64,000 bases of DNA from Corallococcus sp. (GTDB lineage: Bacteria; Bacillota; Clostridia; Christensenellales; CAG-314). The position numbers were made by a program, and so were the translations under genes. How positions within the stretch are numbered: the stretch's first letter is position 1; each line of letters begins with the position of its first letter. The notes beneath the pieces are model-generated. The model was not told the origin of the DNA and made no database searches. It was given only the letters and a program-made list of their open reading frames with translations. Shown here piece by piece: positions 602 through 26,300 of this stretch. Location: contig JAMPAB010000002.1 of assembly GCA_023667435.1 (NCBI GenBank), positions 41,180 through 105,179 on the forward strand, written 5' to 3'.

Positions 602-787
602 ATGAAAAAACAAAAAATGATGACGCGAAAAATATCTTTGACGGTATTTTTTGCAACGGTTATCGCGCTTTGCATATTCGGACTTCTCCTCACTCAAATT
701 ATTTACGGGGATACGCTTGTTATGGGCGAAACTGCTAACGCAAGCGATACCCCCCCCGTCACGAAACTGCGGTTGAGTACGTTATAG
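602..787 (+). CDS. signal-peptide / N-terminal segment of the giant adhesin, separated from the body by a frameshift in a C8 tract
   Basis: ATG 602 has an SD. MKKQKMMTRKISLTVFFATVIALCIFGLLL reads as a basic n-region plus hydrophobic core. The frame ends at TAG 785-787, 28 nt after the C8 run. The body ORF frame opens at 739. Confidence 0.7.
   Translation: MKKQKMMTRKISLTVFFATVIALCIFGLLLTQIIYGDTLVMGETANASDTPPVTKLRLSTL
750..757 (+). repeat. C8 homopolymer at the junction of the two adhesin reading frames
   Basis: Direct count gives c750-c757. The frame-2 and frame-1 ORFs overlap only across 739-787. C9 or C6 would fuse them. The tract also forms the heptamer C_CCC_CCC in the upstream frame. 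Confidence 0.95.
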
Positions 788-894
788 GCGACCGTTCCGT
801 TTCGGGAGAATATGAGGAGATTTCCAAAACGGAATACCGCTACAAAGACCTTGCAAACGGTTACAACGCGGCGATTGCAAAGGCTTTCGAACTG

Positions 895-3800
895 TTGAGC
901 CAAAGCGACAGCGACAACAAATACGTGCGCGTTACGCTTGCAGATGACTGGACGGCTTCGCAGACGAATCTCGAAGGATGGACTTCGTTCGGAAGCGGAG
1001 AGGGCTTTTCGTCGGGAAGAATATTCGTACCGTACGACGCGAATATCGTGCTGGACTTAAACGGAAAAATCGTCAACCGTGATTTAAGCGAGTATTACGG
1101 AAAGAACCCCAACGGCAGCGTATTGTACGTAGAAGGCAACCTGATTGTCGAGGACGGCGCGCCTGCTGTCACACATACGATTGCCGGTTATCGTTACGAT
1201 TGGGACGAGGGGTACACCGTCTTCGATTCCGAAACCGTTAACGGCGGAGTTATTACCGGAGGCAAAGCAGCAACCGGCGGAGGAATAAACGTGGCCGATT
1301 ACGGTACGCTTACGCTGTGCGGAGGCAACGTATTCGGCAACTGCAGCACGGGCAACGGCGGAGGAATAGCGCTCGGCGATTACTGTTCGTTCGTAATGGA
1401 CGGCGGTAAAATTTGGTACAACAGCGCAGAACAGGGAGACAGAAACAACGGCGGAGGAATAAGCGCCGAATACTGCCGCATTATTATCAACGGCGGAACA
1501 ATTTCAAATAACTACGCCGATTCACGCGGCGGAGGAATTTATTCGTCCGCAAACGGTTCCAGCGAGGGATTCGATGAGACCGGCGCTGCCGCGTTCGCGA
1601 TTTACGGAGGCGAAATATCCGAGAACATATCCTCTGCCGAAGGAAGCGGTATTTACTACTCCCAAAACACCTGCATGATCGTCGGCGGATCCCTAGAATA
1701 TAATACGAGCCAGCGCAATTGGGCGGTGTACGGTTCGGGCGATTTGTACGTAGGCGGCAATGCCCGCATTGACAATAATAACTCTGATGAAGGGTATGGG
1801 GAAGAGTATATTTACGATTCCAACATAGGCTTGGCAACGGGCTGCTGCTTGCGCGTTACGGGCAGTTTTGAAGAAGGCGCGTTTTTTGCCGTATCCGACC
1901 CGACAATAGAGATTGTCAATTACGACAACTACGGCTATTCGTACGGTTCGGAAGAAACCGACGAGAACGGCAATCCGGTTGCGCAGCGCAATATCGACGA
2001 AGACGGACATCCCATCGATCCGACAACGTTTTTCGAGTACGACGAATACGACGGAATAAAATATAATATAACCCGCGTACAAAACGGCGCAGGCACGAGT
2101 TTGCCTCAGGCCTATTCGGGAACGCTGCGCGCTACAACCTACAACGTCATATGGTATCTATATCAGACGAACGAGGAAGGAACAGACGTGTCGAAAGTTA
2201 CTTACGGCAATCAATGTTACGAATCGGACAAAAACGCAACGGTAATACGTTATCCCGTTACAGAATACGGTACTTGGGAAAACAGATACAGAACGGGTAT
2301 TATGGCGAAAGTACTCGACGAAAACGACAACATAATAAACACGCTGGAGGCGGAAGTATACTATCCTTATCAAGGCACTCCCCGCAATTACGCGCCGTTT
2401 ACCACCTCCCACAACGACACATTGGAAACGGATCACCCGTACTCCGTAAGAATAAAGGTAAACGAAGAATACCTGTGGGTATCTCTCGATATTTACGCGA
2501 CGTCGATAGCGGACGCTGAGGTAACGGCGGAGATTCACGAAGATGCGAGATACTATCGGCTGGACGAAAATCTAAATGGGCGAATAAGCCTTACTGAAAA
2601 TGATTTCGATATAACGGTAACATTGAAGGACGGAACGGAGCTTACAAAAGGCGAGCATTATACCGTCAGTCTACCCAATCCGGATCCGAACGTCTACGAA
2701 AAGTTTTACGTTGAAATAAAGGGCATAAATACTTATAGCGGCACAAAGTCGTCAAACCTATTGTCTCTCGAAACAAACGAAAATCTCGAGTGTTATTTTG
2801 ACTACTGGCAAATTATAACTTACAATACCGATACAGAAAACATAGAGCGTACAAATTCCGAAACCAATCCGCATGTGATTGATTACGACTTCTACTATGC
2901 CGAAGAACAGCTGCTGGGAAGAAACTTTGCAAAAGACTTGAACGCTCACTGTTACTACAAAGTTGCCAATGCCGACGCTGACGACAATAGAAAATATGCC
3001 GCCAACGTATATTTTAATGCCGCTTCGGAAAACGGGGTCGCATTCGATATTTACAAGAAAGTCGAAGGAAAATGGACGCTTCTCGACGGCAACGAAATAA
3101 TAGGCATCGGCGAATATAAAATAGAACTTAGCACAAACAAGGTTTCTACCCCAAATGCGATGATTAGAGAAACTACTTTCAAACCGTTTTATCTAACCGT
3201 TAACCCGCTTGAGATAGATTCAGTATTATCCGTCGTCGATGGCGACAAAGGAGGATCAGGCGCGAAACTTAACGACGCGCTGAAGATATACTACAACGGC
3301 GACAACCTCGCCGACGTGTTGAAAAAGGATGACGCTTACATCAGTAACGGAGTAACGACGGTGTTGACGGAAGACGGCGATACCGTATACGTTTACTACA
3401 ACGGCAACAAAATGAACGTCAAAATAAGCGACAGCTTGGAGATCCAAAGACTTCCGTATAGGGAAGACGGCGAATGGCAGTACAAATGGTTACTTGTCAA
3501 AGATATCGGCAAAGCGTATATTACTCACAGCATAGGAGACGAAACGGGTATTGCCGGCGAGTCGGAAACCCTAACGCTAATCACCACAACGGTCAGAATA
3601 GAATTTGAGAACTTTATATTTGAGGTGCAACGCGAAGTCGAAGTAGAAAATGACGGCGAAGTTACAGTCGAAACCGTAACCGAATACGTAAACTACTTAG
3701 AAACGACGTTTAACTGGGCGATAGTAACTGCCTGCAACAACGTTCTCGGCGAGGACGATAAAGCGTATACGCCCGTAAAAAACGGCGGAGAAACGCCTAA

Positions 3801-6800
3801 AATAGAATACGGCGACGCGATCGACGTACCCAAAGCGCGCTACGGCGACGGAGTGATACTGCGCATTACAAAAGCCGACAACATTGACGAAAAATTCGTA
3901 GCGGTAGACGTATACGGTGCGACAGCGCTGTACGGTTACAGCGAAACGGCCGAAGGCAACTTGGGCGACAAAATCGGCAAAACGTTCGACGAATACGTTG
4001 CGGAGATTATCCGTAAAGGCGGCACGGGAAATTACAAACTTTACGCGCAGACGGCGGACTACACCGACAACGCAACGGGAATTAAGTATGTTTCCGCCGT
4101 ACAGGAATACGCTTTTACCGTTACCGCGCGCAATATCGGAAAGGAAGGAGAGGACATCAGAATAACCGTAACAGGCGAATACTCTTATACGGGCAGCCAA
4201 ATAACACCCGACGTTTACGTCTTAATAGACGGCATACCGTGCAAAGCAGGAGTCGACTACACCGTTTCTTACGGCGAAAACCTACTTGCGGGAACGAAAA
4301 CCGGCAGCATCACCGTAAATGGCACAGGCGTATATGAGGGAGAAAAGACGGTAGAGTTCGATATAGCGAAAGCCGCCAACAAGTGGACGATACTGAGTAT
4401 GTCCGTGTGGAATCACAATGCGTATAACGCGGACGAACACATTATAATATCCTACGCGCCCGTCGGACGCGACAGCGCGACGTACAAAATAGAAAAGTTC
4501 GAAGACAAACAGTGGAAATCGGTTGCAGGGCTGGAAGCTTTCAAAATAGACGCGAAAGGCAAGATCATAGACGATCAAGAAGGCGCAATCACCGACGCGC
4601 TTAACGGACTTCGCGACAAAAACAGACTTATCGCAACGATTGCAGAAAGCGACAACTACTACGGAGACACGACGGACTTCGAATTCGACATAGAAGCGCT
4701 GCAATCCTCTTACGCCGCGCCGCAGCTTATGCACTTGACGACGGGCGCAGGCAAGAACGACGTTTATACGGGACATATCCTGTCGATAGGTATTCAAAAC
4801 TACAATCCTACGGGAATGAAAGCGGAATTGGACGACGGACTTACGCTCGAAGGCAACGTACTGTACGCAACCGACGCGGGAACGTACACGGTAACGATTA
4901 CGCTGACGGGCGAGGACAGCGTTTGGAGCGACGGTTACGAAGGAGTAAGCCGAACGTTCACGTGGACTGTAAACAAACAAAAGGTTACCATACCCGCTTA
5001 CGGAGTTCGTTTACTTACGTACAACGGACAGGCGCAAACATATTTACCCGCAGGATTTGACTCGGCGACGATGGAAATATCCGAAAATACGGGAACGAAT
5101 GCGGACACGTACACCGCTGTTATAAAGTTGAAAGATACCGACAACTACGAGTGGGCAAATAACGCACAGGGAGAAATTCCGTACGAATTCGAAATAAAAC
5201 AAGCAAACAACGAGTGGACTGCGCTGAGCATCACGGAATGGTACAGCAAACACTACGACGCGGCAGTCAACAGAATAGCAGCATCTGCGGCGTTCGGTTA
5301 CGCGCAGGCGACGTACAAAATAGAAACGTACGTCGGCGGAAGATGGACGGCGGTTGAAGACCTGAACGGATTCAAAATCGACGCGAACGGCAAAATCATA
5401 GACGACAAAAACGGCAAAATTACCGACGCTCTGAACAAACTTCGCGGACAGTACAGACTTACCGCAGCTATTGCGGAAAGCGACAACTTTACGGAAGCGA
5501 CCGATAGTTTCGAGTTTGAAATCGAAGTGCTGTTGACAACCTACGCAACGCCCCGTCTGCTGCTTTTGACGACGGGCGCAGGCAAAAACAACGCTTACAC
5601 GGGGCACGAACTGTCTATCGGCATACAGAACTTGAACCTTGAAGGAATGGATATCGAACTGAGCGCAAAGAACGGATTTTCGCGCGTAGGCGGTACGCTG
5701 TACGCAACCGAAGCGGGAACGTACACGGTAACAATCGAGCTGTCGAACGAGGACAGCGTTTGGAGCAACGGTACGTCAAACGCGATAACGTTGGAGTGGG
5801 TAATAAGAAAACAAACGGTTGCCGCGCCCGCTTACGGAGAAACGGTACTTACGTACACAGGAAGCGAGCAAACTTACTTGCCCGAAGGGTTCGACGATTC
5901 CGTTATGGAAATATCCGAAAATACGGGAACGAACGTAGCTCGGTACACGGCAACGATAAGTCTTAAAGACCCCGACAACTACGAATGGAGTTCCAACCCC
6001 GACGCTGCTGCGCGTTCGTACGTATTCGACATAACGAAAGCCATGAACCGCTACACCACTCTGAGCATAGCGACGTGGTATTACCGCGATTACAATCCCG
6101 ACGTCAACAGAATAGTTTTCGACGCGGCGTTCGGTCTTGTACAGGCAACGTACAAAATAGAAAAGTACGTTGACGAAACCTGGACGGACGTTGAAGGTTT
6201 GGAAGACTTTAAGCTTGATGCGGACGGCAACGTTATAGACGAGGGCGGCAAGATTGCCGAAATATTGAACGGACTTCGCGGCAAATACAGACTTACCGCC
6301 GTAATAGAAGGAAACGACAATTACAGCGAAATAACCGCAACTTCTTACGAATTCAGTATCGTAATTCTGCCTACGAAGTACGACACGCCCGAACTTATGT
6401 ATCTGACGGCGGGCATAGGCAAAAACGACGTTTACACGGGACACGTTCTGTCGATAAGTATTCAGAACTTTAACATTGCCGGAATGGATATCGACCTGAG
6501 CGAGGGACTGACGATCGAAGGAAACGTGCTATACGCGACGAACGCGGGCACCTATACCGCTACGATTACTCTGTTGAGCGACGACAGCGAATGGGGCGAC
6601 GGACTGGGCGGAAACAGCAGAACGTTTACCTGGACGATCGGCAAAATAAAAGTTGCCGTGCCCGATTACGGAACGACGAAGCTTTCGTACAACGGAAGCG
6701 AACAGACGTACCTGCCGAAAGGGTTTGACGCGGCGACAATGGAAATATCCGACAATACGGGAACGGACGCCGACACGTACACGGCGAAAGTAAGACTTAA

Positions 6801-7092
6801 AGACCCCGTCAATTACGAGTGGGATAACCCCGACTACGGCGTGGAAATCCCCTATCAATTCGAAATAGAAAGCGCGACAAGGTTGTTTATAACGATCGTG
6901 TGCATACTTGCCGCCGCTGCGGCGGTTGCCGCGTTTGCCGCGCTTGCGCAATGGCTGATGCACAGACAACGCTTGAAAGTATTCGCAATGGCGAACGAAA
7001 CGGATAGCGACGAGAACGACGGCGAAGACGTTGACGGTGAAGAAGAAAACGAAAACGACGTTGAAGAACACGACGAAGGAGGTAACGAGTAA
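895..7092 (+). CDS. giant surface adhesin-like protein body (2,065 aa as tracked; frame open from 739)
   Basis: The N-terminal third has repeated GGGI/GGG-type turns (ATGGGINV, NGGGIALGD, NNGGGISAEY, SRGGGIYS, GSGIYYS), typical of PMP-like right-handed beta-helices. Three ~277-aa tandem repeats follow. A C-terminal TM helix (LFITIVCILAAAAAVAAFAALAQWL) is followed by a poly-acidic tail. The tracked start is a TTG without an SD. Confidence 0.9.
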   Translation: MSQSDSDNKYVRVTLADDWTASQTNLEGWTSFGSGEGFSSGRIFVPYDANIVLDLNGKIVNRDLSEYYGKNPNGSVLYVEGNLIVEDGAPAVTHTIAGYRYDWDEGYTVFDSETVNGGVITGGKAATGGGINVADYGTLTLCGGNVFGNCSTGNGGGIALGDYCSFVMDGGKIWYNSAEQGDRNNGGGISAEYCRIIINGGTISNNYADSRGGGIYSSANGSSEGFDETGAAAFAIYGGEISENISSAEGSGIYYSQNTCMIVGGSLEYNTSQRNWAVYGSGDLYVGGNARIDNNNSDEGYGEEYIYDSNIGLATGCCLRVTGSFEEGAFFAVSDPTIEIVNYDNYGYSYGSEETDENGNPVAQRNIDEDGHPIDPTTFFEYDEYDGIKYNITRVQNGAGTSLPQAYSGTLRATTYNVIWYLYQTNEEGTDVSKVTYGNQCYESDKNATVIRYPVTEYGTWENRYRTGIMAKVLDENDNIINTLEAEVYYPYQGTPRNYAPFTTSHNDTLETDHPYSVRIKVNEEYLWVSLDIYATSIADAEVTAEIHEDARYYRLDENLNGRISLTENDFDITVTLKDGTELTKGEHYTVSLPNPDPNVYEKFYVEIKGINTYSGTKSSNLLSLETNENLECYFDYWQIITYNTDTENIERTNSETNPHVIDYDFYYAEEQLLGRNFAKDLNAHCYYKVANADADDNRKYAANVYFNAASENGVAFDIYKKVEGKWTLLDGNEIIGIGEYKIELSTNKVSTPNAMIRETTFKPFYLTVNPLEIDSVLSVVDGDKGGSGAKLNDALKIYYNGDNLADVLKKDDAYISNGVTTVLTEDGDTVYVYYNGNKMNVKISDSLEIQRLPYREDGEWQYKWLLVKDIGKAYITHSIGDETGIAGESETLTLITTTVRIEFENFIFEVQREVEVENDGEVTVETVTEYVNYLETTFNWAIVTACNNVLGEDDKAYTPVKNGGETPKIEYGDAIDVPKARYGDGVILRITKADNIDEKFVAVDVYGATALYGYSETAEGNLGDKIGKTFDEYVAEIIRKGGTGNYKLYAQTADYTDNATGIKYVSAVQEYAFTVTARNIGKEGEDIRITVTGEYSYTGSQITPDVYVLIDGIPCKAGVDYTVSYGENLLAGTKTGSITVNGTGVYEGEKTVEFDIAKAANKWTILSMSVWNHNAYNADEHIIISYAPVGRDSATYKIEKFEDKQWKSVAGLEAFKIDAKGKIIDDQEGAITDALNGLRDKNRLIATIAESDNYYGDTTDFEFDIEALQSSYAAPQLMHLTTGAGKNDVYTGHILSIGIQNYNPTGMKAELDDGLTLEGNVLYATDAGTYTVTITLTGEDSVWSDGYEGVSRTFTWTVNKQKVTIPAYGVRLLTYNGQAQTYLPAGFDSATMEISENTGTNADTYTAVIKLKDTDNYEWANNAQGEIPYEFEIKQANNEWTALSITEWYSKHYDAAVNRIAASAAFGYAQATYKIETYVGGRWTAVEDLNGFKIDANGKIIDDKNGKITDALNKLRGQYRLTAAIAESDNFTEATDSFEFEIEVLLTTYATPRLLLLTTGAGKNNAYTGHELSIGIQNLNLEGMDIELSAKNGFSRVGGTLYATEAGTYTVTIELSNEDSVWSNGTSNAITLEWVIRKQTVAAPAYGETVLTYTGSEQTYLPEGFDDSVMEISENTGTNVARYTATISLKDPDNYEWSSNPDAAARSYVFDITKAMNRYTTLSIATWYYRDYNPDVNRIVFDAAFGLVQATYKIEKYVDETWTDVEGLEDFKLDADGNVIDEGGKIAEILNGLRGKYRLTAVIEGNDNYSEITATSYEFSIVILPTKYDTPELMYLTAGIGKNDVYTGHVLSISIQNFNIAGMDIDLSEGLTIEGNVLYATNAGTYTATITLLSDDSEWGDGLGGNSRTFTWTIGKIKVAVPDYGTTKLSYNGSEQTYLPKGFDAATMEISDNTGTDADTYTAKVRLKDPVNYEWDNPDYGVEIPYQFEIESATRLFITIVCILAAAAAVAAFAALAQWLMHRQRLKVFAMANETDSDENDGEDVDGEEENENDVEEHDEGGNE
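4375..6870 (+). repeat. three in-frame tandem repeats of ~0.83 kb inside the adhesin gene
   Basis: Units start at about 4375 (ANKWTILS), 5203 (ANNEWTALS) and 6040 (AMNRYTTLS). Periods are 828 and 837 nt. The protein units are clearly homologous (…ATYKIE.…W..V.GLE.FK.DA.GKIIDD… GAGKN.VYTGH.LSIGIQN… TYLP.GFD..TMEISENTGT…). Confidence 0.85.
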
Positions 7093-8030: not shown

Positions 8031-8064
8031 GCGCATATAATTACAATTAACGAGAGGTGTCAAT

Positions 8065-8292: not shown

Positions 8293-8380
8293 CGCGCGAA
8301 CGCGCTTTCCGTTAGAAATCGGACAACGAAAGTTTCTTTGTAAAATGTGCGGAAGTTTCATTCCGACAAACAATCAAAAA

Positions 8381-8419
8381 AGTCTCTCCCGCTGCATAGT
8401 AGCGGGAGAGACTTTTTTA
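8381..8419. terminator. bidirectional rho-independent terminator between convergent units
   Basis: AGTCTCTCCCGC (8381-8392) pairs with GCGGGAGAGACT (8402-8413). It is preceded by A6 and followed by T6, and sits between the + gene ending at 8292 and aroK ending at 8590. Confidence 0.8.
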
Positions 8420-8589
8420 TTAGAACGTACGCGGACGGTTTTTTTTTGCAACACCGAATTGTCAACGCGATACGAAGTAATAAAAGGCAGATAAACTCGT
8501 TTAAAACTGTTTAGTCGTTTATGATAAAAAACGCTTTTTCGATAAATTAAACACGTAGTCGTTTGTGAAACCGCTTGCCGCAACGGAAA

Positions 8590-11565: not shown

Positions 11566-11587
11566 AGCAGTTTAATATAATCCGCGA

Positions 11588-13533: not shown

Positions 13534-13535
13534 TG

Positions 13536-14933: not shown

Positions 14934-14942
14934 AAATAGCTT

Positions 14943-14953
14943 CCCCCCCCCCC
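14943..14953 (-). repeat. G11 (C11 on + strand) tract in the SD position of the MBL gene
   Basis: Minus strand reads GAAC-G11-AAGCTATTT-ATG(14933). No other SD-like element lies between the upstream stop (14980) and the ATG. Confidence 0.95.
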
Positions 14954-14979
14954 GTTCTATTTTACGTTCCGTCCGCGCG

Positions 14980-16878: not shown

Positions 16879-16884
16879 AGCACG

Positions 16885-16895
16885 CCCCCCCCCCC
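16885..16895 (-). repeat. G11 (C11 on + strand) tract filling the 20-nt gap between the patatin stop and the MBL start
   Basis: Minus strand reads TAA-CGT-G11-CGTGCT-ATG(16878). The tract is the only SD-like sequence in the gap. Confidence 0.95.
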
Positions 16896-16898
16896 ACG

Positions 16899-17738
16899 TT
16901 AACGTCGGCGTATTTGCAGTAACTCTTTTATTTCGTCCATCTTCGCCATTGCGGCGCGATAGCCTTCTTCAACCATTTCGTCGATATACGACAAACTGGT
17001 ATTTTTGTACTGCGACAGTTCGGGTTCTATCACGATATCGCTGTTGTGATACCCTTTGTACATAGTAGATTTCGTCGTTATATTCCACGTCGCGACAAGC
17101 GTGTCAACCAACTTGCGCGATTGCGTTCCTTTGCCGCGATTGTGATTCAAATCGACGCCGATAACGATTTCCGCGCCCATGCGGCGGCATACGTCGGCAG
17201 GCATATTGTTGAGCAGACCTCCGTCGACAAGCAGCATACCGTCTATTTCCACAGGTTTGAACAATGCCGGTACCGCGCACGATGCAGACACCGCCTGCGA
17301 AACGTTGCCCGAGTTAAGCACCACCTCGCGTCCTTCGGTAATATCCACCGCAACTGCGGCAAACGGCGTCGATAAGTCGTCGAACGTTTTGTCGCATAAC
17401 AGCTTGTCGGCAATTTTCGCTATGTTGGCAGACTCCGAACCGATTACGATGCGCGAATTGAGAACGTCTTTTCTGCGGACGTTTTTTCCTTCCTCTATAA
17501 TGTCGTCAAGAGAAACGCCAGCGCAATACATCGCGCCCATCAAGCTTCCAGCGCTTGTACCCGCAACGCAATCGAATCCGATGCGGTTTTCTTCGAACGC
17601 GCGCAGTACGCCTATATGCGCAAACCCTCTCGTTCCTCCGCCCGATAAGGCAAGTCCAAGTTTGAATTTCAACGGTATTTTGCCGTCGCTATTCAGTTTT
17701 TGTTGTTTACCGAAAATTTTCACTGATATATTATACAA
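16899..17738 (-). CDS. patatin-like phospholipase
   Basis: GLALSGGGTRGFAHIGVL (oxyanion GGG.RG), GTSAGS (nucleophile elbow) and DGG are present. The start is uncertain. The tracked TTG lies inside a TTGCCA-17-TATAAT promoter-like sequence, and a GTG 15 nt downstream has no SD. Confidence 0.8.
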   Translation of the reverse strand: MYNISVKIFGKQQKLNSDGKIPLKFKLGLALSGGGTRGFAHIGVLRAFEENRIGFDCVAGTSAGSLMGAMYCAGVSLDDIIEEGKNVRRKDVLNSRIVIGSESANIAKIADKLLCDKTFDDLSTPFAAVAVDITEGREVVLNSGNVSQAVSASCAVPALFKPVEIDGMLLVDGGLLNNMPADVCRRMGAEIVIGVDLNHNRGKGTQSRKLVDTLVATWNITTKSTMYKGYHNSDIVIEPELSQYKNTSLSYIDEMVEEGYRAAMAKMDEIKELLQIRRR

Positions 17739-17788
17739 TATAAAAACGGTTTTGGCAAGACCGACAATTCAGAATAACCGACTTTAAT

Positions 17789-17824
17789 AAAAAAAAAGAA
17801 TCCGTCGCCTAAGCTTGCGGATTC
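17789..17824 (-). terminator. rho-independent terminator after the 152-aa membrane protein gene
   Basis: GAATCCG (17798-17804) pairs with CGGATTC (17818-17824). On the minus strand it is followed by T9 (17789-17797). Confidence 0.75.
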
Positions 17825-17871
17825 TTTAAAACTGTCAAATAAATATTCGATTGTAAACGCGTTGCGTTCTT

Positions 17872-18330
17872 TTATTCCTGAGCGCTCGCGGAAGGAACTT
17901 CCTCGTTTGCCTTAGCGGCGTTTCTGAGTTGAATTGCGCCCACCAAATACAACACGGGGATAACCAAACCCAACAAAGCGGAGAACCATTGTCCGTAAAT
18001 GATGTCCATTATCGCCCCTATACCGCATACTACGATAACTACAATCGCCGTAATAAAGCAAGCCTTAGAGGACTTCTGCATAACGCCGATTACGCCTGCG
18101 GCAATGTAAGCAGCGGCATCGATAAGGTATACGACGCCCAGAATGATTATCATAAGACGCACAGCCGCTTCTATCGTTGCCGCATCCGCGCCCGAATCTT
18201 CGATCGCGCCGCCGATAATTCCCGAAACAAGGTCTCCCGCCGCGAAGAAAATCAACGCCATAAGGGCAAGAAAAGCGCCGCAGACAATCATTAAAATACT
18301 GGATACTTTAAGTAATTTGTTCTTTTCCAT
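17872..18330 (-). CDS. small polytopic membrane protein (about 4 TM), unknown function
   Basis: AAAGGAG lies 7 nt before the ATG. Four hydrophobic segments. It has its own promoter and terminator. Confidence 0.75.
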   Translation of the reverse strand: MEKNKLLKVSSILMIVCGAFLALMALIFFAAGDLVSGIIGGAIEDSGADAATIEAAVRLMIIILGVVYLIDAAAYIAAGVIGVMQKSSKACFITAIVVIVVCGIGAIMDIIYGQWFSALLGLVIPVLYLVGAIQLRNAAKANEEVPSASAQE

Positions 18331-18366
18331 AACAGTTACTCCTTTTTCTTTTTTAAGATTGTTTTA

Positions 18367-18396
18367 AGTATACCCCCCCCCGTATGCAAAAGTCAA
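18367..18396 (-). promoter_or_regulatory. sigma-A promoter whose spacer contains a G9 tract
   Basis: Minus strand reads TTGACT (18396-18391), then TTTGCATAC + G9 (an 18-nt spacer; G9 = 18381-18373), then TATACT (18372-18367). The ATG at 18330 lies ~37 nt further downstream. Confidence 0.65.
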
Positions 18397-18490
18397 GTAT
18401 TATCGTAAAATTTAAATACATTTTTTCGCTTTTAATCGACAGCGACGGCAAAGCAATCTACGTACAATAACGCTCGCGCTTGCTCGCGGC

Positions 18491-18544
18491 AAATAAAAAA
18501 CAGTCTGCGGTAAAACAGGTTTTTTCCCTAATTGCCGCAAACTG
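18491..18544 (-). terminator. terminator after rubrerythrin
   Basis: On the minus-strand RNA, CAGUUUGCGG pairs with CCGCAGACUG (10 bp including one G-U). The loop is long (24 nt). The hairpin is followed by UUUUUUAUUU. Confidence 0.55.
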
Positions 18545-18580
18545 CTTAAATATGTAAATAATTACGTTGATACGCTCGGA

Positions 18581-19123
18581 TTATTTCTTGAAATAACGGT
18601 TGTAAAGTCCTTCGAACGCTTTGCCGTGACGGGCTTCGTCGCGAGCCATTTCGTGAACGGTATCGTGAATAGCGTCGAGCCCTGCCGCCTTAGCGCGTTT
18701 TGCCAAATCAGTTTTGCCCATAGTAGCGCCGTTTTCCGCTTCGATACGCATAGCGAGGTTTTTGGCGGTGCTGTCCGTCACAACTTCTCCCAAAAGCTCG
18801 GCAAACTTAGCTGCGTGCTCCGCTTCTTCGTAAGCGGCTTTTTCCCAATACAAACCTATTTCGGGATAACCTTCGCGGAAAGCCACTCTCGCCATTGCAA
18901 GGTACATTCCCACCTCGCTGCATTCGCCGTTGAAATTAGCGCGAAGATCGTCCAAAATATCCTTAGACGCGCCTTTCGCGACGCCTACAACGTGCTCCGC
19001 CGCCCAGCTGAGTTCGCCCGCTTGCGCTACGAACTTTTCTTTGGGAGCTTTGCATTGAGGGCACGAAGTCGGAGCCTCGTTTCCTTCGTGAACATAACCG
19101 CATACAGAACATACAAATTTCAT
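18581..19123 (-). CDS. rbr: reverse rubrerythrin (N-terminal rubredoxin-like domain + ferritin-like diiron domain)
   Basis: The N-terminus has [10 protein letters not shown]....[11 protein letters not shown] (two CxxC pairs). It is followed by a four-helix diiron region with E..EH-type motifs ([21 protein letters not shown]). Confidence 0.9.
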
Positions 19124-19210
19124 TTCAGTAATTCTCCTTTTTATTTTTAATAAATTTTATTGTTTTCAATTTTTCGACTTGCCTTTTGCAAGATTTTTCC
19201 GCTTGCGGAA

Positions 19211-19324
19211 TTATTCTTCGTCAAGCGTAAATTCCTCTGCGCCCACGCCGCACAACGGGCAGATTTCAGGGGGTTCTTCGCCTTCGTGAACGTATCCGCA
19301 TACGCTGCATATCCATCTTTTCAT
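19211..19324 (-). CDS. 37-aa rubredoxin-like protein (not in the ORF track)
   Basis: My translation is [37 protein letters not shown]. It has two CxxC knuckles. AAGGAG lies upstream, and its ATG overlaps the perR stop (ATGA at 19321-19324). Confidence 0.7.
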
Positions 19325-19701
19325 TTGTTTTTCTCCTTATTTATTTTTGTCCGACATTCGTCGCAACAGCCGTAAAACGTAACTTCGTACCTGTCGACGT
19401 CGGCAAGACTGTGCTGGACGTTTATATCCGACGGCAGGACGTCCTCGATTCTTCCGCAACGGGAGCATACTTTATGAGCGTGTTCTTCTACTCGCGCGTC
19501 GTAGCGTTCGGTGACGCCTTCGACGCTTATCCGCTTTACTCTGCCGACAGAACAAAGCTCGTCCAAATTGCGATACACCGTTGCCAAACTTACGTTGGGA
19601 ATTATTTCGCGCGTTTTGCCGTATATCCACGTAATATCGGGGTGCGAATCGGTTTGAGACAACACCTTGTATACCGCTTCGCGCTGCGAAGAAAATCTCA
19701 T
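19321..19701 (-). CDS. perR: Fur-family regulator, PerR-like
   Basis: A Fur-family winged helix ([12 protein letters not shown]) and C-terminal CSRCG....CDEC zinc site are present. It is the first gene of an oxidative-stress operon. Confidence 0.8.
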
Positions 19702-19715
19702 TAAATACTCCTCAT

Positions 19716-19754
19716 TTACAATTATATGATAAACTTTATCGGTTAATTTGTCAA
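19716..19754 (-). promoter_or_regulatory. perR operon promoter with an overlapping imperfect Fur/PerR-box-like inverted repeat
   Basis: Minus strand: TTGACA (19754-19749), 17-nt spacer, TATCAT (19731-19726). TTATCAT-ATA-ATTGTAA (19732-19716) is a 7-3-7 inverted repeat with 2 mismatches and overlaps the -10. Confidence 0.45.
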
Positions 19755-19866
19755 TATTTTTAAAAAATTTACAAAAAAAATTTTCGAAAAAATAAACGGC
19801 AAAAGTAACGCGGTCAAACGCTTGAAAAATTTACGCAAGTGCAATAAAATAATTGTCGGTGATAAT

Positions 19867-20589
19867 ATGAACGTACAGCAGCTTTTGTCCCCTTTCAGAC
19901 GGGCGGTTAACGATTACAATATGATAAACGACGGCGACAAAATAGCCGTAGGAGTTTCGGGCGGAAAAGACAGCCTCGTTTTGCTTACGCTTATGCGCGA
20001 GTACCAAAAATATTTCCGCTGCGACTTTCAGCTTACGGCGGTAACGATAGATATGGGGTTTGCCGACGGCGTTTACGCCCCAGTAAAAAAATACTGCGAG
20101 GAAATAGGCGTTTCCTACTCCGTCGTATCTACCGACATTGCGGAAATAATTTTCGATATACGCAAAGAGAAAAATCCGTGCAGTCTTTGCGCAAAAATGC
20201 GCAGAGGCGCCTTAAACGGAGAGATAACTTCGAAAGGTTTCACCAAACTTGCGTTGGGGCACCACCTCGACGACGTCGTGGAAACCTTTATGCTCAGTTT
20301 GTTTTACGAAGGCAGACTGAATACCTTTCAACCCAAATCGTATATGTCGCGAAGCGGCGTCACACTGATACGTCCGATGATCTACCTTAAAGAAAAAGAT
20401 ATAGTAGGCGCAGCAAAAACATTGCCTGTGGTACACAACCCATGTCCTGCCGACAAACATACGGAACGCGAAAATATGAAATCGCTTCTTAAAGAACTTT
20501 CGAAGAAATATCCCGACCTGACGGAAAAATTCGCAAACGCAATTATGCACCCCGAACGGTATAATCTGTGGGATAAGACGGAAAAGTAG
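19867..20589 (+). CDS. ttcA: tRNA 2-thiocytidine synthase TtcA-family PP-loop ATPase
   Basis: VGVSGGKDS (PP-loop), NPCSLCAKMRRG and LALGHHLDDVVETFMLSLFYEG are present. I moved the start to ATG 19867, trimming the tracked TTG at 19822. Confidence 0.85.
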   Translation: MNVQQLLSPFRRAVNDYNMINDGDKIAVGVSGGKDSLVLLTLMREYQKYFRCDFQLTAVTIDMGFADGVYAPVKKYCEEIGVSYSVVSTDIAEIIFDIRKEKNPCSLCAKMRRGALNGEITSKGFTKLALGHHLDDVVETFMLSLFYEGRLNTFQPKSYMSRSGVTLIRPMIYLKEKDIVGAAKTLPVVHNPCPADKHTERENMKSLLKELSKKYPDLTEKFANAIMHPERYNLWDKTEK

Positions 20590-20682
20590 ACGGCTTGCCG
20601 AATAACCGCGCAATTAAGGCGAATTTTGTCATAAAATTGCACAAACCGACGTTTAATATACTACTGAACGTCGGAGACTGCA

Positions 20683-20931
20683 ATGAAAGAATATATAACG
20701 GAACGCGTAACGGAAATAGCGCACTACCTTGTCGAAAACAAATGCACGGTAAGGGAAGTCGCCGACGTTTTCTGCGTGAGTAAATCCACCGCGCATAAAG
20801 ACCTGTCCGAGCGTTTGCCGCAGCTGGACAAAGAGCTCTACCTAAGCGCGTCGGATATCCTAAAAGAAAACTGGGACGAACGCTACGTACGCGGCGGCGA
20901 GGCCACAAAAAGAAAATTCAAAGAAAAATAA
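20683..20931 (+). CDS. spoIIID: sporulation transcriptional regulator SpoIIID
   Basis: The 82-aa sequence ...CTVREVADVFCVSKSTAHKDLSERLP......RGGEATKRKF matches my recollection of SpoIIID closely. Confidence 0.9.
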   Translation: MKEYITERVTEIAHYLVENKCTVREVADVFCVSKSTAHKDLSERLPQLDKELYLSASDILKENWDERYVRGGEATKRKFKEK

Positions 20932-21044
20932 AGCTTGCCGCATTTAATTCGACGTACGCGCAAACTTGTAATGTTTCGAGATTGCATAAAATTCGCGATT
21001 CGGGAAAGCATCGCTGAAATTTGCATAATCCTACAATAAATCGG

Positions 21045-21080
21045 CAACCGAGAAATCGCAAGGATTTCTCGGTTGTTTGC
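21045..21080 (+). terminator. terminator downstream of spoIIID
   Basis: CAACCGAGAAATC (21045-21057) pairs with GATTTCTCGGTTG (21063-21075), followed by TTTGC. Confidence 0.7.
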
Positions 21081-21229
21081 ATAAGTTCCGATATAAGCTT
21101 TTGACGTCGCTATGCGCGGCGCAAACCTGCCGAGTTCGCTTTTTGCGCGTGAACGTACGCCCGAAGATAAAACCCGTCGCCGCGAAAATCGAAACAAATA
21201 CGCAGTTTAACGCAGCCGTACGGTTTTAT

Positions 21230-22234
21230 TTACCATCTATTCTTTGCGTGTTCGCAAAACGCAACGAAGGGAGGAACGTACAGGCGCTGACCGTCGTCTA
21301 GCACTACGTAACCGCACCACAACCCGAAACGCTGATGACAGCTGTTGTTTACGACGACCGCATTCGTTGTCGTATAATTGTCGTACAGCATTTCGACGTC
21401 GAATACAAAACGCTTGTCGTCGGATATGTAATGGTAGGCGTCGCCTAACTGCATTTCTTCAACGTTGCCCAACTTGTACGCTTTGTTGTCGTAAAAGAAC
21501 ATATTTTCCGTAGCTTTCGACGTGTCGCCGAATCCCCAACCGATGTTAAATCCGAAATGCTTTCCGTCCACAATCGTTCCGCCGTTACCCCATACCCAGC
21601 TGTGCGAATAAGGCCAAACGCCTCTGCCCCAGTCCAGTAAACCGAAGCCGTTGTGAATTTCGTACGCCATATCGTCTATACGGCATCTGCCGTCTACGGT
21701 AAAACAGTTTTCTTTGTAGTTAAGATACCAGTGACGTTTCTGCTCGAAGGGGGTTGCTATAACCATTTTTTCCTTTTGAGAGGAGCAGTTGGTAAGCATT
21801 ACGTCTATTTCCGCTTTTATTCCTTTTTTAGTGGAATACGTCAAAGACAAACGCCGTCCTTTGTCCGTAACCTCGAATTGCGCAAGCAGATTTTCCGAAA
21901 AATACTGTAACACGTTGGGAAATTCGGGATTTAACGGCATTTTATCTTTAAATACGTTTTGAAACATTATCTGTTTGCCGACGGAACGGCGCTTGCCCGT
22001 ATCGAGATCGATAAGGGTCGCCGAAACGGACGAAGCGTAGGAAACGTGCCCCATTGTCATCTGCAACACTACGTGACCGAAGTGCATCTGATAAAAATCC
22101 CACTCTTTAAGCCTTAACGGAGGACATTTAACCTTACTGCGGTCGTAAAGATAGTACATATGCCGCGCAAAGCCGGGATTTTCCAAATTGCCCGATTTAT
22201 TCAACAGTTTCTGATTGCTTTTGATTTCGTTCAT
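21230..22234 (-). CDS. hypothetical cytosolic protein (possibly DUF2804 family)
   Basis: A long clean ORF of 334 aa, Trp/aromatic-rich and apparently beta-rich. The family assignment is from memory only. Confidence 0.7.
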   Translation of the reverse strand: MNEIKSNQKLLNKSGNLENPGFARHMYYLYDRSKVKCPPLRLKEWDFYQMHFGHVVLQMTMGHVSYASSVSATLIDLDTGKRRSVGKQIMFQNVFKDKMPLNPEFPNVLQYFSENLLAQFEVTDKGRRLSLTYSTKKGIKAEIDVMLTNCSSQKEKMVIATPFEQKRHWYLNYKENCFTVDGRCRIDDMAYEIHNGFGLLDWGRGVWPYSHSWVWGNGGTIVDGKHFGFNIGWGFGDTSKATENMFFYDNKAYKLGNVEEMQLGDAYHYISDDKRFVFDVEMLYDNYTTTNAVVVNNSCHQRFGLWCGYVVLDDGQRLYVPPFVAFCEHAKNRW

Positions 22235-22238
22235 AATA

Positions 22239-23021
22239 TTAACCTTTTTTGTTTCCGAACAGCATTACAAGCCGCATAAGCAATTCCAGTATTTCGACGT
22301 ACAGATAAATCAACGTAGTAACCAGCGAAAAAGCGACGCACCACTCGTACTTTTTGTCCGCGCCGGCGTTTACGAGATAGTCCACGCTTTGCATATCCCA
22401 CGCGAGCGTTATTGTAGCCCAAATTATACACACTGCGGAGACGGCAAGTTGAATCCACCACAGGGCGGAAAAATCTCCGAACGCGCCCGTAAGAGATATC
22501 AACCAAACGATAAGTTCCAACACGATAAGACTGAAAAACGCAATCATCAAACCGCGCATAAATTTACTGCTGATTTTCACTCCCAGCAGTCTGTTGACGG
22601 CAAGAGAAATGAGAAATACTATCGCCGTACCCAAAAATGCGGCAAAAGCTATTCCCGGATAGAAAATATCCACGAACAGTGCCAGTATGCCGAGCAGGCA
22701 TCCCTGCAAAATAGCGTATATTACGCTCAGTACCTTAGCTGCGGACGGAACAAAGGCGATGACGATAGCTATTACGATAAGCGGGACGGCGCAAACGGCC
22801 GTAGCTATGCCGACGGCTACAAGCGCTTCGCCCACATATCCGTTGCCTATTGCCCACAGCATAACAAACTCGGTAACTATCGCAAACAAAATCGTAAGAA
22901 AAGTCAGTAGCGCCGACTTTCCGTAAACGCCTTTATAGGTTACCGATTCGGTTTCCGTTCCCAACTCGTTGCGCTGTGACTTCGCTACCCAACGTCTGAC
23001 AGACGGATTGCCCATTCTCAT
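22239..23021 (-). CDS. Bax-inhibitor-1/YccA-like polytopic membrane protein
   Basis: A short N-terminal cytosolic segment (MRMGNPSVRR...) is followed by ~7 TM helices, 260 aa in total. It lies 4 nt upstream of the next gene. Confidence 0.65.
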   Translation of the reverse strand: MRMGNPSVRRWVAKSQRNELGTETESVTYKGVYGKSALLTFLTILFAIVTEFVMLWAIGNGYVGEALVAVGIATAVCAVPLIVIAIVIAFVPSAAKVLSVIYAILQGCLLGILALFVDIFYPGIAFAAFLGTAIVFLISLAVNRLLGVKISSKFMRGLMIAFFSLIVLELIVWLISLTGAFGDFSALWWIQLAVSAVCIIWATITLAWDMQSVDYLVNAGADKKYEWCVAFSLVTTLIYLYVEILELLMRLVMLFGNKKG

Positions 23022-23224
23022 AATTCCAAATCTCCTAGATTGATTGTTTTAATTGTAGCACAGTTTCCGCAATTATGCAAGTTAACTCGACAGTAAGATT
23101 TTTCCCGTAAAATCGCTTCGTTAAACGTCGGGCGCGCAACGGCAAATCTACTACGTTTATATCGAAATACACGTTCGAATAACCGTATTATACGCATTGT
23201 GCTATACATATGCGATATAATCAG

Positions 23225-23253
23225 TTGTCAAAACAAAAAACTTGCGATATAAT
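23225..23253 (+). promoter_or_regulatory. promoter for the transglutaminase-core surface protein gene
   Basis: TTGTCA (23225-23230), 17-nt spacer, TATAAT (23248-23253), ~125 nt upstream of ATG 23378 (SD GGAGG). Confidence 0.5.
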
Positions 23254-23377
23254 ACGTACGCAAACGGCTTGACGTATTCTTTCGGCAAAGAACAGTCGAT
23301 ACGTTTGCAATCGCGCGGTAAATGCACTAAATCCGATTCCGCCGATTAAAATATAAAGAAAATATTTTGGAGGTTTT

Positions 23378-26300
23378 ATGAAAGTTGAAACAAGACGAGT
23401 ATCCGTTGCGATACTGAGCGTAGTTTGCGCGCTATTTTTGATACTGGGCGTAACGCTGTTCGACACGAACAACGCTTTTCAGACGTATGCCGAAAGTGCG
23501 GAACAAATTACGTCTACATACTACTACGACCATCTTAAAAACTTAAACGGTAGCGACTACGCTATGGCAAAAGAGTTTTACGACATTTTAGACGAGTTGA
23601 ATACGACGGGCGACTTTAAAGACGGCGTAATCAACAAGGAATTAAGCGAGGTTTTGACGCCCGCAGAAATTGCAAGCTGGGTAGAAAACGGAAATCTCGA
23701 TATCCCCAAAGCGTTCGGCGCGGCAAGGGATTCCTATTACTACGATCACCCCGAATTGTTCTACGTGGATTTGTACAAACTCACGCTTAGCGCGGGACGC
23801 GTAAACGGAACGTACGTCGCGTACCTCGACTGCGGCACGGAAGCAGACTGCTATATGGATAACGGAGCTTTGACAAGCGAAACGGCCGTTAACAACGCAA
23901 TCGCTGCTTACGAGCAGAAAATCCAAACAATCGTAACCTACGTCAAGACGAGCGCCGCGCAAAACTCTTTCGGCACCGCGCAAGATATGCTGTGGGCAAA
24001 TTACGCTAACGAATACATTGCGGGACACGTCGAATACGACTACGAAGCATTAACTGCTGCAAACGCTTCCGAAAATTACAGCAAACCTTATATAGGCAAC
24101 GCTTACGGCGCGCTTATCGAAGGGAAATGCGTATGCAGCGGTTACTCGTTTGCGTATAAAGCAGTTATGGACGCATTGGATATTCCCTGCGTAATAGTAA
24201 GCGGAATAAGCATTGACAAAAGTACCGACGGCGTTACCGACAAAGGCGAAGCGCACAGTTGGAACTACGTTTGGCTGCAAGTTCCGCAGGACGACAACGT
24301 TGCAGAGGCGGTTGCTCTTGCGGATACGGCAACAGCGAAGAATTGCGCCTGGTACGCTTACGACGTTACGTGGAACAGTACCGGTTCGGACACCTCCGCT
24401 TACGTTAACATGAGCGCGTACACGGCAAGCGTAAATCATTTGGCAGATCCCGTCATATCCACGTCGGGATACAATATGCCTTACCCTGAACTGTCCGCCT
24501 ATAATTACGGCGCGGCAACGGTAGAAAGCGACTTTTACCACAGCAGCGCGTATACTCCCTACGGCAACGAAACGGACAACAGCGGCAATCCTCTTATGCA
24601 ATACGTTACGTACGTCAGTTACAAAGGCAAAGGCGCTATCGCTCTGTTGGAAGACGGACTGCACATTGTTTACCGTCATTATGCTTACAACGACGACACA
24701 AACGAAATGTATTGGACGGCATGGTGCGATATAGGCAATATGTACAAGGATACACTGGGAATGACAGAGGAAGACGAAGGAAATCAAACGTACGCGCCCA
24801 TAGCCTACAACTGCATGTATACGCAATTTGCGGTGGTAGATATCGAACCCGATATCAACTACAATCCTGACGATAAAATTCTCACAACTTCTCACACGAA
24901 TTTCTATTACAGCAAGGACAATGCGGATTTCGGCGAACACACTGTATACATTTCTCCGTTGTACACAAACAAAGCTTTCGGAACGTACACCGCCGCGCCT
25001 TACGTTGTAAGCACTACTCCGCGCCATACGGGAGTTGTAACGATCAACGACTCGATGGGCGACGGAACGGGATCGGTTGCCGACAGCAAAGCGTTTGAAA
25101 TCAGCGTGACTTACGACGAAAACCTGCACGTTTTGGACAGCAGCAAACCTATCGGCATCGAATTCGTTTCGAGCTTTGCGAATATCGATAGATACGCGGG
25201 ATTCGTCGCGTATGAAGACGGTTCGTACGTAAAAATCGTAAACGGCAACACGTTGACGTTTAAATTCAAACCCAGTCTTATGTACGAACACAACAGCGAG
25301 TTGTACTCTTTCTACTTCTCCAACGTAGGTTCGACCAAACTGATGCCTAACGGAAACACGTCCGACAAACTGCCCAATCCTGCGCACTTCCACTTTGCAA
25401 GAAGCTATATGCAGTGCCCGTTGATTTTGGGACACGGCAAACTTTGGATAGATTGCTGCGCGCAACCGACGCTTGTAAGCAACTCCGACCTTGCGGCGAT
25501 GGATTTCAAAGACCCCGACGGAAACTCAACGTTCTCCGAACAGGCGCGCAGTCAGATGATGCTCGTTGCCGAATCCGTCAAACCCGAAGTAGAGAGCGCG
25601 ATGCTTTCGGAAATCAACAAGAGCGGACTTAAAACAAAGGATATCAAAGCAAGCGAAACGTACGACATCAACCTGCAAATCTGCGGCAAATATCCCGTAA
25701 TACCCGACGGCAGTTACGTTAAAATAGCTCTCGGATTCCCCGAAGGTTACGGCCCCGAAGACGAAGGCGTCACATTTAAGCTGTATCACCGCAAACACGT
25801 TTCCGGCGATAAATATATCATAGAAGAAGTACCCTGCGTAGTAACGCAGTTAGGAATAGTAGCTACTGTTACAAGCTTCTCGCCTTACATGGTTGTAGCT
25901 GCCGACGCTAAGACGGTTTCGGCAAACAAGACAATTTACGCTACAATCGACGGAAAAGGCGGAACGCTCAGCCGCGAAGACGGAAAAGTTCAAACCTTAT
26001 CGGGGGGGGCGACGTATACTTACACCGTTACGCCCGATGAAGGATACGGCATTTACAAAGTAATGCTCAACGGACAAGACGTAACGAGCAGCGTTCAAAA
26101 CGGCAAACTGACCGTCGGTTACGACGATTTGCTCAACAACAACGAGCTTGTAATCAAGTATATTTCCGACGTTGCGGCGCAGCGTTACGCGGCGAACGAC
26201 TTTGAGATCGTAGACCCCGTTACCGTCGTCGTATCGACAAAGGGCGAAGCAAGCATAGCCAAACCGAGCGCAGAGTTGGCAATCAACACAATTACGCCTG

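Follow-up and report, generated by a model that had tools for sequence, protein, structure and literature searches.

Long G:C homopolymers at envelope-protein genes of a gut Clostridia lineage: a candidate set of contingency loci

Multi-locus, repeat-driven phase variation is textbook biology of a few host-adapted pathogens. Here, we describe five homopolymeric G:C tracts in a 64,000-nucleotide (nt) stretch of DNA (the window; contig JAMPAB010000002.1 of assembly GCA_023667435.1), each of which is associated with a gene for a membrane or surface protein. The original prediction had proposed that these tracts form a set of contingency loci, i.e., sites at which slipped-strand mispairing changes the expression of the adjoining gene. 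A direct count on the forward strand gives C8 at 750-757, C11 at 14943-14953, C11 at 16885-16895, C9 at 18373-18381 and G8 at 26002-26009, exactly as predicted, and these runs are designated T1 to T5, respectively. We examined the sites of the tracts, their excess over chance and their lengths in relatives, and we consider the proposed reading probable for the set as a whole.

Genes and sites that carry the tracts

T1 belongs to the 5' part of the coding region of a gene for a large adhesin. The expression unit of this gene (519-7092, + strand) consists of a strong promoter, a Shine-Dalgarno sequence (SD), the start codon ATG 602, a signal peptide, the tract and a body of 2,100 amino acids (aa). 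The promoter (TTGACA-17-TATTAT, 519-547) matches the consensus at 11 of 12 positions, the SD is GGAG at approximately 590, and the signal peptide, which begins MKKQKMMTRKISLTVFFATVIALCIFGLLL..., is of typical form. The tract itself (C8, 750-757, + strand, within codons ACC CCC CCC G..) lies 49 codons after ATG 602, in codons 50-52, just past the hydrophobic core of the signal peptide and thus at the junction of signal peptide and body where it had been placed. A point missing from the original prediction is that T1, as assembled, leaves the adhesin out of frame. When the tract length was changed in silico, C8 led to a stop after 61 aa and C7 to a stop after 57 aa; C6, C9 or C12 gave a fusion protein of 2162-2164 aa by joining the open reading frame (ORF) listed as 895-7092. 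The body is not translatable alone, because its frame is closed by a stop 12 nt before T1 and offers neither a start nor an SD; translation could begin at TTG 895 at the earliest, and this codon lacks an SD. It is nevertheless a clean open frame of 2,100 codons with no second lesion. The frame-restored protein has a beta-helix-like N-terminal part, three repeats of ~330 aa, a C-terminal transmembrane (TM) helix and an acidic tail, and a protein homology search with it gave no match to an adhesin body of either assembly of this species. On architecture, this layout makes the strongest case among the five tracts, and it strongly suggests a classic translational ON/OFF arrangement caught in the OFF state. 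The 61-aa stub (602-787) is annotated in GenBank as a separate hypothetical protein, NC099_00620, an example of how OFF-phase genes in metagenome-assembled genomes (MAGs) can be split or lost in annotation.

The C8 tract could also be decoded as it stands. If ribosomes underwent programmed -1 frameshifting, or if transcription slipped, on C CCC CCC, a fixed low level of adhesin would be made with no change in DNA; the zero-frame tract (A-CC CCC CCC) is formally an X XXY YYZ heptamer, and an insertion-equivalent (-1) shift would restore the frame. However, no stimulatory structure is found 5-9 nt downstream of T1: positions 758-850 fold with z = -1.1, and a stable hairpin is seen only from ~36 nt downstream. 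On this ground T1 was rejected as a programmed -1 frameshift site. All-C heptamers are, moreover, poor slippery sites, and frameshifting at T1 would leave the other four tracts unaddressed. We regard such decoding as very improbable.

T2 and T3 belong to one operon on the - strand, whose promoter (TTGCCA-17-TATAAT, 17758-17730) lies upstream of genes for a patatin-like phospholipase, a lipoprotein with Big_3 and metallo-beta-lactamase (MBL) domains (MBL-Big3) and a TM-anchored MBL protein, followed by aroC-aroB-aroA/E-aroQ-aroK. Both tracts are G11 on the coding strand and fill the SD position within very short intercistronic gaps. T3 (16885-16895, - strand) begins 3 nt past the stop codon of the patatin gene (16899-16901), and 6 nt separate its end from ATG 16878, the start of MBL-Big3 (14980-16878, - strand), a 632-aa lipoprotein with a LAVAC lipobox in its signal peptide, Big_3 Ig-like domains and a ComEC-type MBL domain. 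The MBL-Big3 stop (14980) is separated by 46 nt from ATG 14933; T2 (14943-14953, - strand) lies in this gap, its 3' edge 9 nt from the ATG. The gene served by T2 (13536-14933, - strand) encodes 465 aa, and its product combines a ComEC-type MBL domain with a single TM segment (aa 70-88) and an N-terminal tail rich in Lys and Ser. Over 357 aa, the two MBL proteins share 51% identity, so that the claim of G11 runs at the SDs of two paralogous MBL hydrolase genes holds. At the orthologous sites, relatives have GGGGGAAA.., CGGAG.. and ACGGAG (T2) and GAGGA, GGGGA, AAAGGA and GGAG (T3). These counterparts, from four related species and including GGGGGA, are plain SDs with G-runs of 4-5 nt, and T2 and T3 are therefore species-specific expansions of SD G-runs in the 5' direction.

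T4 (G9 on the coding strand, 18373-18381, - strand) occupies the 3' half of a promoter spacer. The promoter (TTGACT-N18-TATACT, 18367-18396, - strand; 10 of 12 consensus matches) serves a small membrane-protein gene (17872-18330, - strand) that encodes 152 aa with ~5 TM segments, falls in no Pfam or NCBIfam family and is conserved in relatives. The gene is monocistronic and is followed by a hairpin and T9 terminator at 17789-17830. The predicted location of T4 within the spacer was borne out, as the tract lies between TTGACT and TATACT. The orthologous promoters at three relatives' loci (L038, L039 and L040) agree with that of the window in hexamers, downstream leader (TAAAAtAATCTTAAAAA) and 18-nt spacing, with spacers free of homopolymers; since these tract-free spacers are also 18 nt long, G9 reproduces the native spacing. 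By length, G8 gives 17 nt, G9 gives 18 nt and G10 gives 19 nt. A genome-collection scan with MBL-Big3 did not recover the species of the window and gave a single relative, L002, a further species whose MBL-Big3 is 59% identical to that of the window. L002 carries the core acTTGACTTTTGCATAC-A-G7-TATACT with a 17-nt spacer, before an unrelated lipoprotein gene that heads a DUF5722/metallophosphatase/GT2 operon. A G-tract has thus been retained in this promoter despite considerable divergence, and architecture and conservation together give good support for T4 as a candidate tract. The two loci (17872-18330 in the window and 752-1371 in L002) share the promoter core and have non-homologous first genes, a 5-TM protein and a lipoprotein; the gene cargo between the T4-type promoter and the patatin gene has been exchanged.

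T5 (G8, 26002-26009, + strand) was correctly assigned to the interior of a transglutaminase surface-protein gene (23378-26419, + strand). The 1013-aa product is built around a transglutaminase core; a signal/TM segment is present at its N terminus, and KRKR follows the TM anchor at its C terminus. The tract reads tcG GGG GGG Gcg (Ser-Gly-Gly-Ala, codons 875-878), is in frame and lies ~95 codons before the anchor; in silico, G7 gives 894 aa and G9 gives 887 aa, with loss of the anchor in both cases. Homologues that are 43-54% identical all keep the anchor and conserve only one Gly at the tract site. Because the Gly-Gly pair is not conserved, conservation of the protein does not require T5. The tract uses GGG, the rarest Gly codon (5.8%), twice and is the sole GGGGGG among 91 Gly-Gly dipeptides in genes of the window. 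A role of T5 as a contingency tract is plausible. A gene triad at 48876-53322, composed of a MoxR AAA ATPase, a DUF58 protein and a transglutaminase-like membrane protein, also encodes a transglutaminase-like protein (752 aa), which contains no tract and is unrelated in sequence to the T5 protein.

Excess of G:C runs and tract length in relatives

The five tracts are the only G or C runs of at least 7 nt in the whole 64 kilobases (kb), in agreement with the statement that no comparable run occurs elsewhere. The run spectrum has a gap below them: C4 occurs 60 times, C5 four times, and C6 and C7 not at all, followed by runs of 8, 9, 11 and 11, and among G runs there are eight G5, one G6 and the single G8. 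The G+C content of the window is 45.6%. We calculated expectations analytically from run-extension probabilities of the window's own sequence (orders 1-4), with the long tracts excluded. By this measure, 0.03-0.16 G:C runs of at least 8 nt and 0.0001-0.001 of at least 11 nt are expected in the window, and five and two, respectively, are present. The Poisson probability of the excess is ~1e-7 to 1e-10, and it is at most 2e-4 even with the tracts kept in the estimate. The claim that the long runs exceed chance expectation is therefore confirmed. For A and T runs of at least 8 nt, ~5 of each are expected and 2 and 4 are observed, if anything fewer than expected; because these runs show no surplus, the excess is specific to G:C. 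G:C tracts are regarded as slippage-prone from ~7-8 nt, and all five runs, which exceed compositional expectation, lie in this range at 8-11 nt. With 0.78 runs per 10 kb, the species of the window is the richest of its clade in G:C tracts. TRF and Rfam scans returned nothing relevant among other repeats or RNA families.

The A/T runs of 9 nt had been explained as terminator tails. The A9 at 17789-17797 does form the T9 tail of a good terminator hairpin, downstream of the 152-aa gene; the T9 at 8439-8447 sits ~20 nt after a stronger bidirectional terminator.

The window is part of a 113.8-kb MAG contig (locus tags NC099_; proteins MCM1533136-MCM1533154). Its NCBI label, 'Corallococcus sp.', names a myxobacterial genus (Myxococcota). 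The gene content is that of Bacillota/Clostridia (SpoIIID, Listeria-Bacteroides repeats, BspA-LRR surface proteins and ComEC-type MBL domains), and the relatives are all labelled as Clostridia, Clostridiales or Bacillota MAGs. The label is wrong for this reason and is a taxonomic mislabel.

In the collections searched, the species is represented by two assemblies, the second being a sister MAG (NC332_, GCA_023664405.1, 'Firmicutes bacterium'). Its contigs L001 and L027 cover positions 9593-26997 of the window (17.4 kb), which include T2-T5. L001 is 99.62% identical to the window, with 31 substitutions and 3 indel events, and L027 is 99.24% identical, with 62 substitutions and no indel, which amounts to 93 substitutions and 3 indels over the 17.4 kb. 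The G11 tracts account for two of the three indels: T2 is 11 nt in the window and 9 in L001, and T3 is 11 and 10. The third, in a terminator region, is an A5/A6 difference. Compared with the 17.4-kb flank, the two longest tracts are thus hotspots of indels. T4 (G9) and T5 (G8, on L027) have the same length in the two assemblies, and so do three A/T runs of 7-9 nt within the region compared. In this comparison of two strains, both known from MAG consensus sequences, tract length differs at T2 and T3 and agrees at T4 and T5. The sister contig of the T1 region is 6.7 kb long and is estimated to end ~2 kb short of T1; no identical copy of the 69-aa gene upstream of the adhesin was found in the sister assembly. 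The fragmentation of the sister MAG is apparent at 18833-18849 of the window, in the rubrerythrin gene, where L001 ends and L027 starts with a 17-bp overlap.

These differences could be technical, i.e., the T2 and T3 length differences and the T1 frameshift might be homopolymer miscalls in low-coverage metagenome assemblies, with tract lengths in fact fixed and the adhesin in frame. Both genomes are MAGs, the sister is broken into contigs of 6.7-9.3 kb that end inside genes, the length differences occur solely at the longest tracts, where sequencing error is highest, and the third indel is likewise homopolymeric (A5 versus A6). On the other hand, T2 differs by 2 nt (11 versus 9), which is more than a typical consensus miscall, and the three A/T runs of 7-9 nt as well as the G8 and G9 tracts agree perfectly between the assemblies. 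Every other long ORF of the window (up to 1,675 aa) is intact, so that the assembly is not frameshift-prone. Taken together, miscalling is an unlikely source of these observations. The tracts themselves are not poly-G sequencing artefacts, since the same sites carry tracts in two independent assemblies and G7 is found in the same promoter of another species.

Other species of the clade also carry G:C tracts. In a related and much more abundant species with syntenic loci (L028-L037), a C8/C9 tract is 9, 8 and 9 nt long in three samples; it lies in the leader of a gene for a 749-aa Flg_new surface protein, 24 nt upstream of the SD. The same species has an in-frame G9 that encodes a Gly3 motif in a CofD-like gene; its length is constant, and in 4 of 9 samples the run is broken by a synonymous G-to-C change. 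In another species, this Gly3 motif is encoded by G10 in two samples (L039, 6196-6205; L040, 1642-1651). The constancy of the CofD-like tracts indicates that tracts of such size are not wildly unstable at the consensus level. In a further related species, no G:C run of at least 7 nt was found in 21 kb. Judged from these sequences, long G:C tracts are a patchy, lineage-labile feature of the clade.

Two cases of gene variation among these relatives were considered as products of G-tract slippage and rejected. A BaxI-like membrane-protein gene, located ~800 nt upstream of the DUF2804 gene in L028-L037, is intact (261 aa), shortened by an indel (GGGTATATC versus GGGTATC) or split by a nonsense change; the resulting products (261, 240, or 55+194 aa) are due to a TA-dinucleotide indel and a TGG-to-TAG change. 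At ~15,240-15,360 of L028-L037, GT2 and CofD-like genes are separate in most samples. In L032, a stop substitution (TAG to CAG) fuses them into an ORF of ~1010 aa, and the split or fusion of these genes is caused by this stop loss; L034 has a 1016-aa GT2/CofD fusion, and in L039 and L040 the two form one ORF. In addition, L028-L033 contain tandem paralogous genes of 153-154 aa at ~1,600-3,800, with no Pfam hit and with 2 to 4 copies depending on the sample, and L041 has an ISL3-family transposase (3267-4433) adjoining the Tex gene that is absent from the window and the other relatives.

A metagenome scan for the T4 promoter core with any spacer returned 23 loci, none of which has poly-G; 12 belong to an unrelated promoter/operator family, and no extra strains were recovered. 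The 15-mer of the T4 core alone is thus non-diagnostic, as what it mostly retrieves is this family, which shares only the 15-mer with the poly-G promoter and is otherwise unrelated. The family (TTGACTTTTGCATACC-N7-TATACT-ttt-GGTATGCAAAAGGAGG) occurs in L005-L009, L011, L012, L014, L016, L020, L021, L025 and L026. A palindrome (TTTGCATACC/GGTATGCAAA) brackets its -10 element, and it sits upstream of a small gene whose product starts M-x-PKKMGRPTD and is helix-turn-helix (HTH)-like. This arrangement suggests an autoregulated repressor.

Readings of the tracts

The explanation that we favor, and consider probable, is that the five tracts are hypermutable G:C homopolymers that arose in this species and act as slipped-strand contingency loci at expression-critical sites of envelope genes. 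The tracts, their excess, their positions, their frame consequences and the strain difference at T2 and T3 are observations; high-frequency reversible switching and any role in fitness are what we infer from them. In the proposed mechanism, slipped-strand mispairing during replication would add or remove one G:C pair at each tract. At T1, this would toggle a membrane-anchored adhesin of ~2,160 aa, ON at C6, C9 and C12 and OFF at C7 and C8; the sequenced population would be predominantly OFF, and a +1 slip would repair the frame. At T4, slippage would alter the -35/-10 spacing (17/18/19 nt) and may act as a transcriptional rheostat for the small polytopic membrane protein. At T5, it would exchange the last ~135 residues, including the anchor, for a short out-of-frame tail, and the truncated transglutaminase-like protein would probably be released. 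T2 and T3 would be the fastest-changing tracts, as expanded SD G-runs of two paralogous, extracytoplasmic ComEC-type MBL hydrolases in one operon.

Position and gene class bear on this proposal to different degrees. A change in length would affect the reading frame at T1, the -35/-10 spacer at T4 and the anchor at T5; T2 and T3 are at the SD position, where spacing to the ATG is independent of length. Relative to a start codon, four of the five tracts fall between -60 and +160 nt, a zone that covers ~14% of the window (P ~0.002, in a test chosen after seeing the data). The predicted products of all five tract genes are membrane or surface proteins, as is typical of contingency loci, and the claim that every tract is attached to an envelope gene is to this extent true. 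The association is weaker than claimed, since twelve envelope genes take up 32.2 kb, or 50% of the window bases; the chance of finding all five tracts at such genes is ~0.002 by gene count and ~0.03 by length.

Several findings weigh against the contingency-locus reading. By length rather than by gene count, the chance of the envelope association is ~0.03, so that the association alone is weak, and large surface-protein genes without tracts are present in the window: BspA-type LRR proteins at 26635-28230, 37922-42949 and 53253-56894, a 1635-aa ORF at 59079-63986 and the second transglutaminase at 48876-51134. T4 and T5 do not differ between the strains, the length of T1 is known from one assembly only, and the strain evidence as a whole consists of two assemblies that are MAG consensus sequences, in which homopolymer lengths can be miscalled. 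The CofD-like G9/G10 tracts of the two related species show no length change across 7 samples. Finally, the 3' edge of T2 and T3 is fixed whatever the tract length, so that the distance from SD to ATG is constant, and their ordinary folding energy is flat from G5 to G13. As a whole, the original prediction stands in that the tracts are real, exceed chance and lie at length-sensitive sites, with T1 in the OFF state, T2 and T3 variable and a length-polymorphic C8/C9 tract before a surface-protein gene of a related species; it is weakened by the invariance of T4 and T5 and by the absence of an evident effect at T2 and T3.

An alternative explanation does without any evolved switch; in it, short G-runs that pass the slippage threshold drift wherever their length is nearly neutral. 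The tracts would then be hypermutable by-products of slippage: T2 and T3 harmless SD expansions, T4 a tract at native spacing, T5 a tract held in frame by purifying selection, and T1 part of an inactivated adhesin. Such drift is in keeping with the ordinary 4-5 nt SD G-runs at the T2 and T3 sites of the four related species, a further point on the debit side of the switching proposal, and with the indifference of SD-ATG distance and ordinary folding to T2 and T3 length. The T4 spacing equals that of tract-free orthologues and is constant between strains, T5 is invariant between assemblies, the CofD-like in-frame G9/G10 tracts of relatives are stable or broken by synonymous change, and tract positions, except for the T4 promoter, are not conserved across species. 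However, neutral drift does not explain why runs of at least 8 nt occur only at expression-relevant sites of envelope genes and not in ~30 kb of other sequence, and it leaves the gap at run lengths 6-7 (one G6 only) unexplained. An adhesin body that is intact over 2,100 codons with no second lesion is unexpected for an old pseudogene, and a species with just 59% identity at the protein level still has a G-tract in the T4 promoter core. We consider neutral drift a possible but less probable account of the set than switching.

The least certain step of the favored explanation is the effect of T2 and T3 on translation, as a switching effect of their length is not evident. Ordinary mRNA secondary structure was ruled out as the mechanism, because the predicted energy is independent of tract length, and a role of the tracts as promoter-spacer elements was also rejected, given the poor candidate hexamers and transcripts that would begin within the region coding for the signal peptide. 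A more specific model is that T2 and T3 are length-thresholded translational switches that work through an RNA G-quadruplex that swallows the SD, and that together with T1, T4 and T5 they would make up a multi-mechanism repeat phasome of a spore-forming gut commensal from a Clostridia lineage. G11 is the shortest run able to fold an intramolecular two-tetrad quadruplex (GG-G-GG-G-GG-G-GG), and the G9 and G10 of the sister strain cannot do so. Consistent with this, ViennaRNA with a G-quadruplex term places the threshold for a two-tetrad quadruplex over the SD exactly at G11, with predicted energies changing from -23.5 to -35.1 kcal/mol for T3 and from -22.2 to -43.2 kcal/mol for T2; in our judgement, these two-tetrad stabilities are likely overestimated. 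If the model were true, a slip of one or two bases would uncouple individual cistrons from their operon neighbors. We view it as a speculative extension that is improbable as stated.

If the tracts switch, as the favored explanation holds, an uncultured lineage of commensal gut Clostridia would apply the strategy of Neisseria and Campylobacter to its adhesin, lipoprotein and membrane-protein genes. In such MAGs, 'frameshifted pseudogenes' may then be OFF-phase genes, and strain-level surface heterogeneity (e.g., for phage or antibody escape) may be hidden in consensus assemblies, which would make homopolymer length in gut metagenomes worth genotyping from reads.

Comparison with known contingency loci

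The counterparts of T1 are translational ON/OFF loci. In Neisseria, pilC reportedly has poly-G in the signal-peptide coding region and opa is said to have CTCTT repeats in the leader-peptide region. Translational ON/OFF contingency loci have been reviewed as a general class (PMC11868660). T1 resembles pilC and opa in the site of the repeat, within or directly behind the signal-peptide codons of a large adhesin gene, where a one-base slip shifts the frame. It differs in its host, an uncultured spore-forming Bacillota gut bacterium rather than a Gram-negative mucosal pathogen, and in that switching is here predicted from sequence. The protein is also unrelated, being an adhesin with beta-helix/MBG-like repeats and a C-terminal TM anchor.

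Homopolymers in promoter spacers have reportedly been described for Bordetella pertussis fim (poly-C), Neisseria porA/opc (poly-G/C), Treponema pallidum tpr/TP0126 (poly-G) and Mycoplasma hyorhinis vlp (poly-A). T4 is like these in that the tract lies wholly between -35 and -10, a slip changes the spacer by 1 bp and the gene served encodes a membrane protein. Unlike in these systems, the current length gives the native 18 nt, the state is probably 'normal ON' and not a suboptimal one, and no length variant is found in the two strains.

For T2 and T3, the closest parallel is the G(n) tract of Moraxella catarrhalis uspA1, which lies 29 bp upstream of the ORF, varies from 6 to 11 G across strains and is associated with graded mRNA levels (PMC7302503). 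The uspA1 tract, a start-proximal run of 6-12 nt at a surface-protein gene with strain-variable length, is matched in these features by T2 and T3, which have 9-11 G and end 6-9 nt from the ATG, and by the C8/C9 tract in the leader of the related species. The effect of length on uspA1 mRNA was measured, whereas T2 and T3 lie inside an operon at the SD and no effect is obvious from their geometry.

Late tracts have precedents as well. A poly-A tract in Listeria monocytogenes inlA is said to give a truncated, secreted InlA. Work on truncated InlA is cited in the reference list of PMC2831843, and C-terminal switching by homopolymers in Helicobacter canadensis is treated in PMC2823697. T5 is similar in that a slip at a homopolymer late in the ORF would drop the C-terminal anchor and not abolish the protein. 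It differs in that only the in-frame allele is seen in the two strains and in that the anchor is a TM helix, not LPXTG.

With regard to lineage, the remark that such loci are not known to be described for spore-forming Clostridia-like organisms is reasonable and needs to be narrowed. For Clostridia or gut Clostridiales, full-text searches of the library used returned no account of repeat-driven contingency loci, and this part of the remark stands. Repeat-driven phase variation is known in other Firmicutes: the references of PMC11868660 include a poly-C tract in Group A Streptococcus mga, and those of PMC2831843 include swarming phase variation of Bacillus subtilis. In C. difficile, phase variation works via DNA inversion (PMC11868660).

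As a set, the tracts recall the poly-G 'phasomes' of Campylobacter jejuni and Helicobacter (PMC6321876). In both cases, several poly-G/C tracts of at least 8 nt are found on surface-structure genes in a genome that otherwise avoids G:C runs. The organism considered here belongs to another phylum and has another lifestyle, and the count refers to a 64-kb window. Each of the five tracts has a known mechanistic counterpart; what would be new is the lineage.

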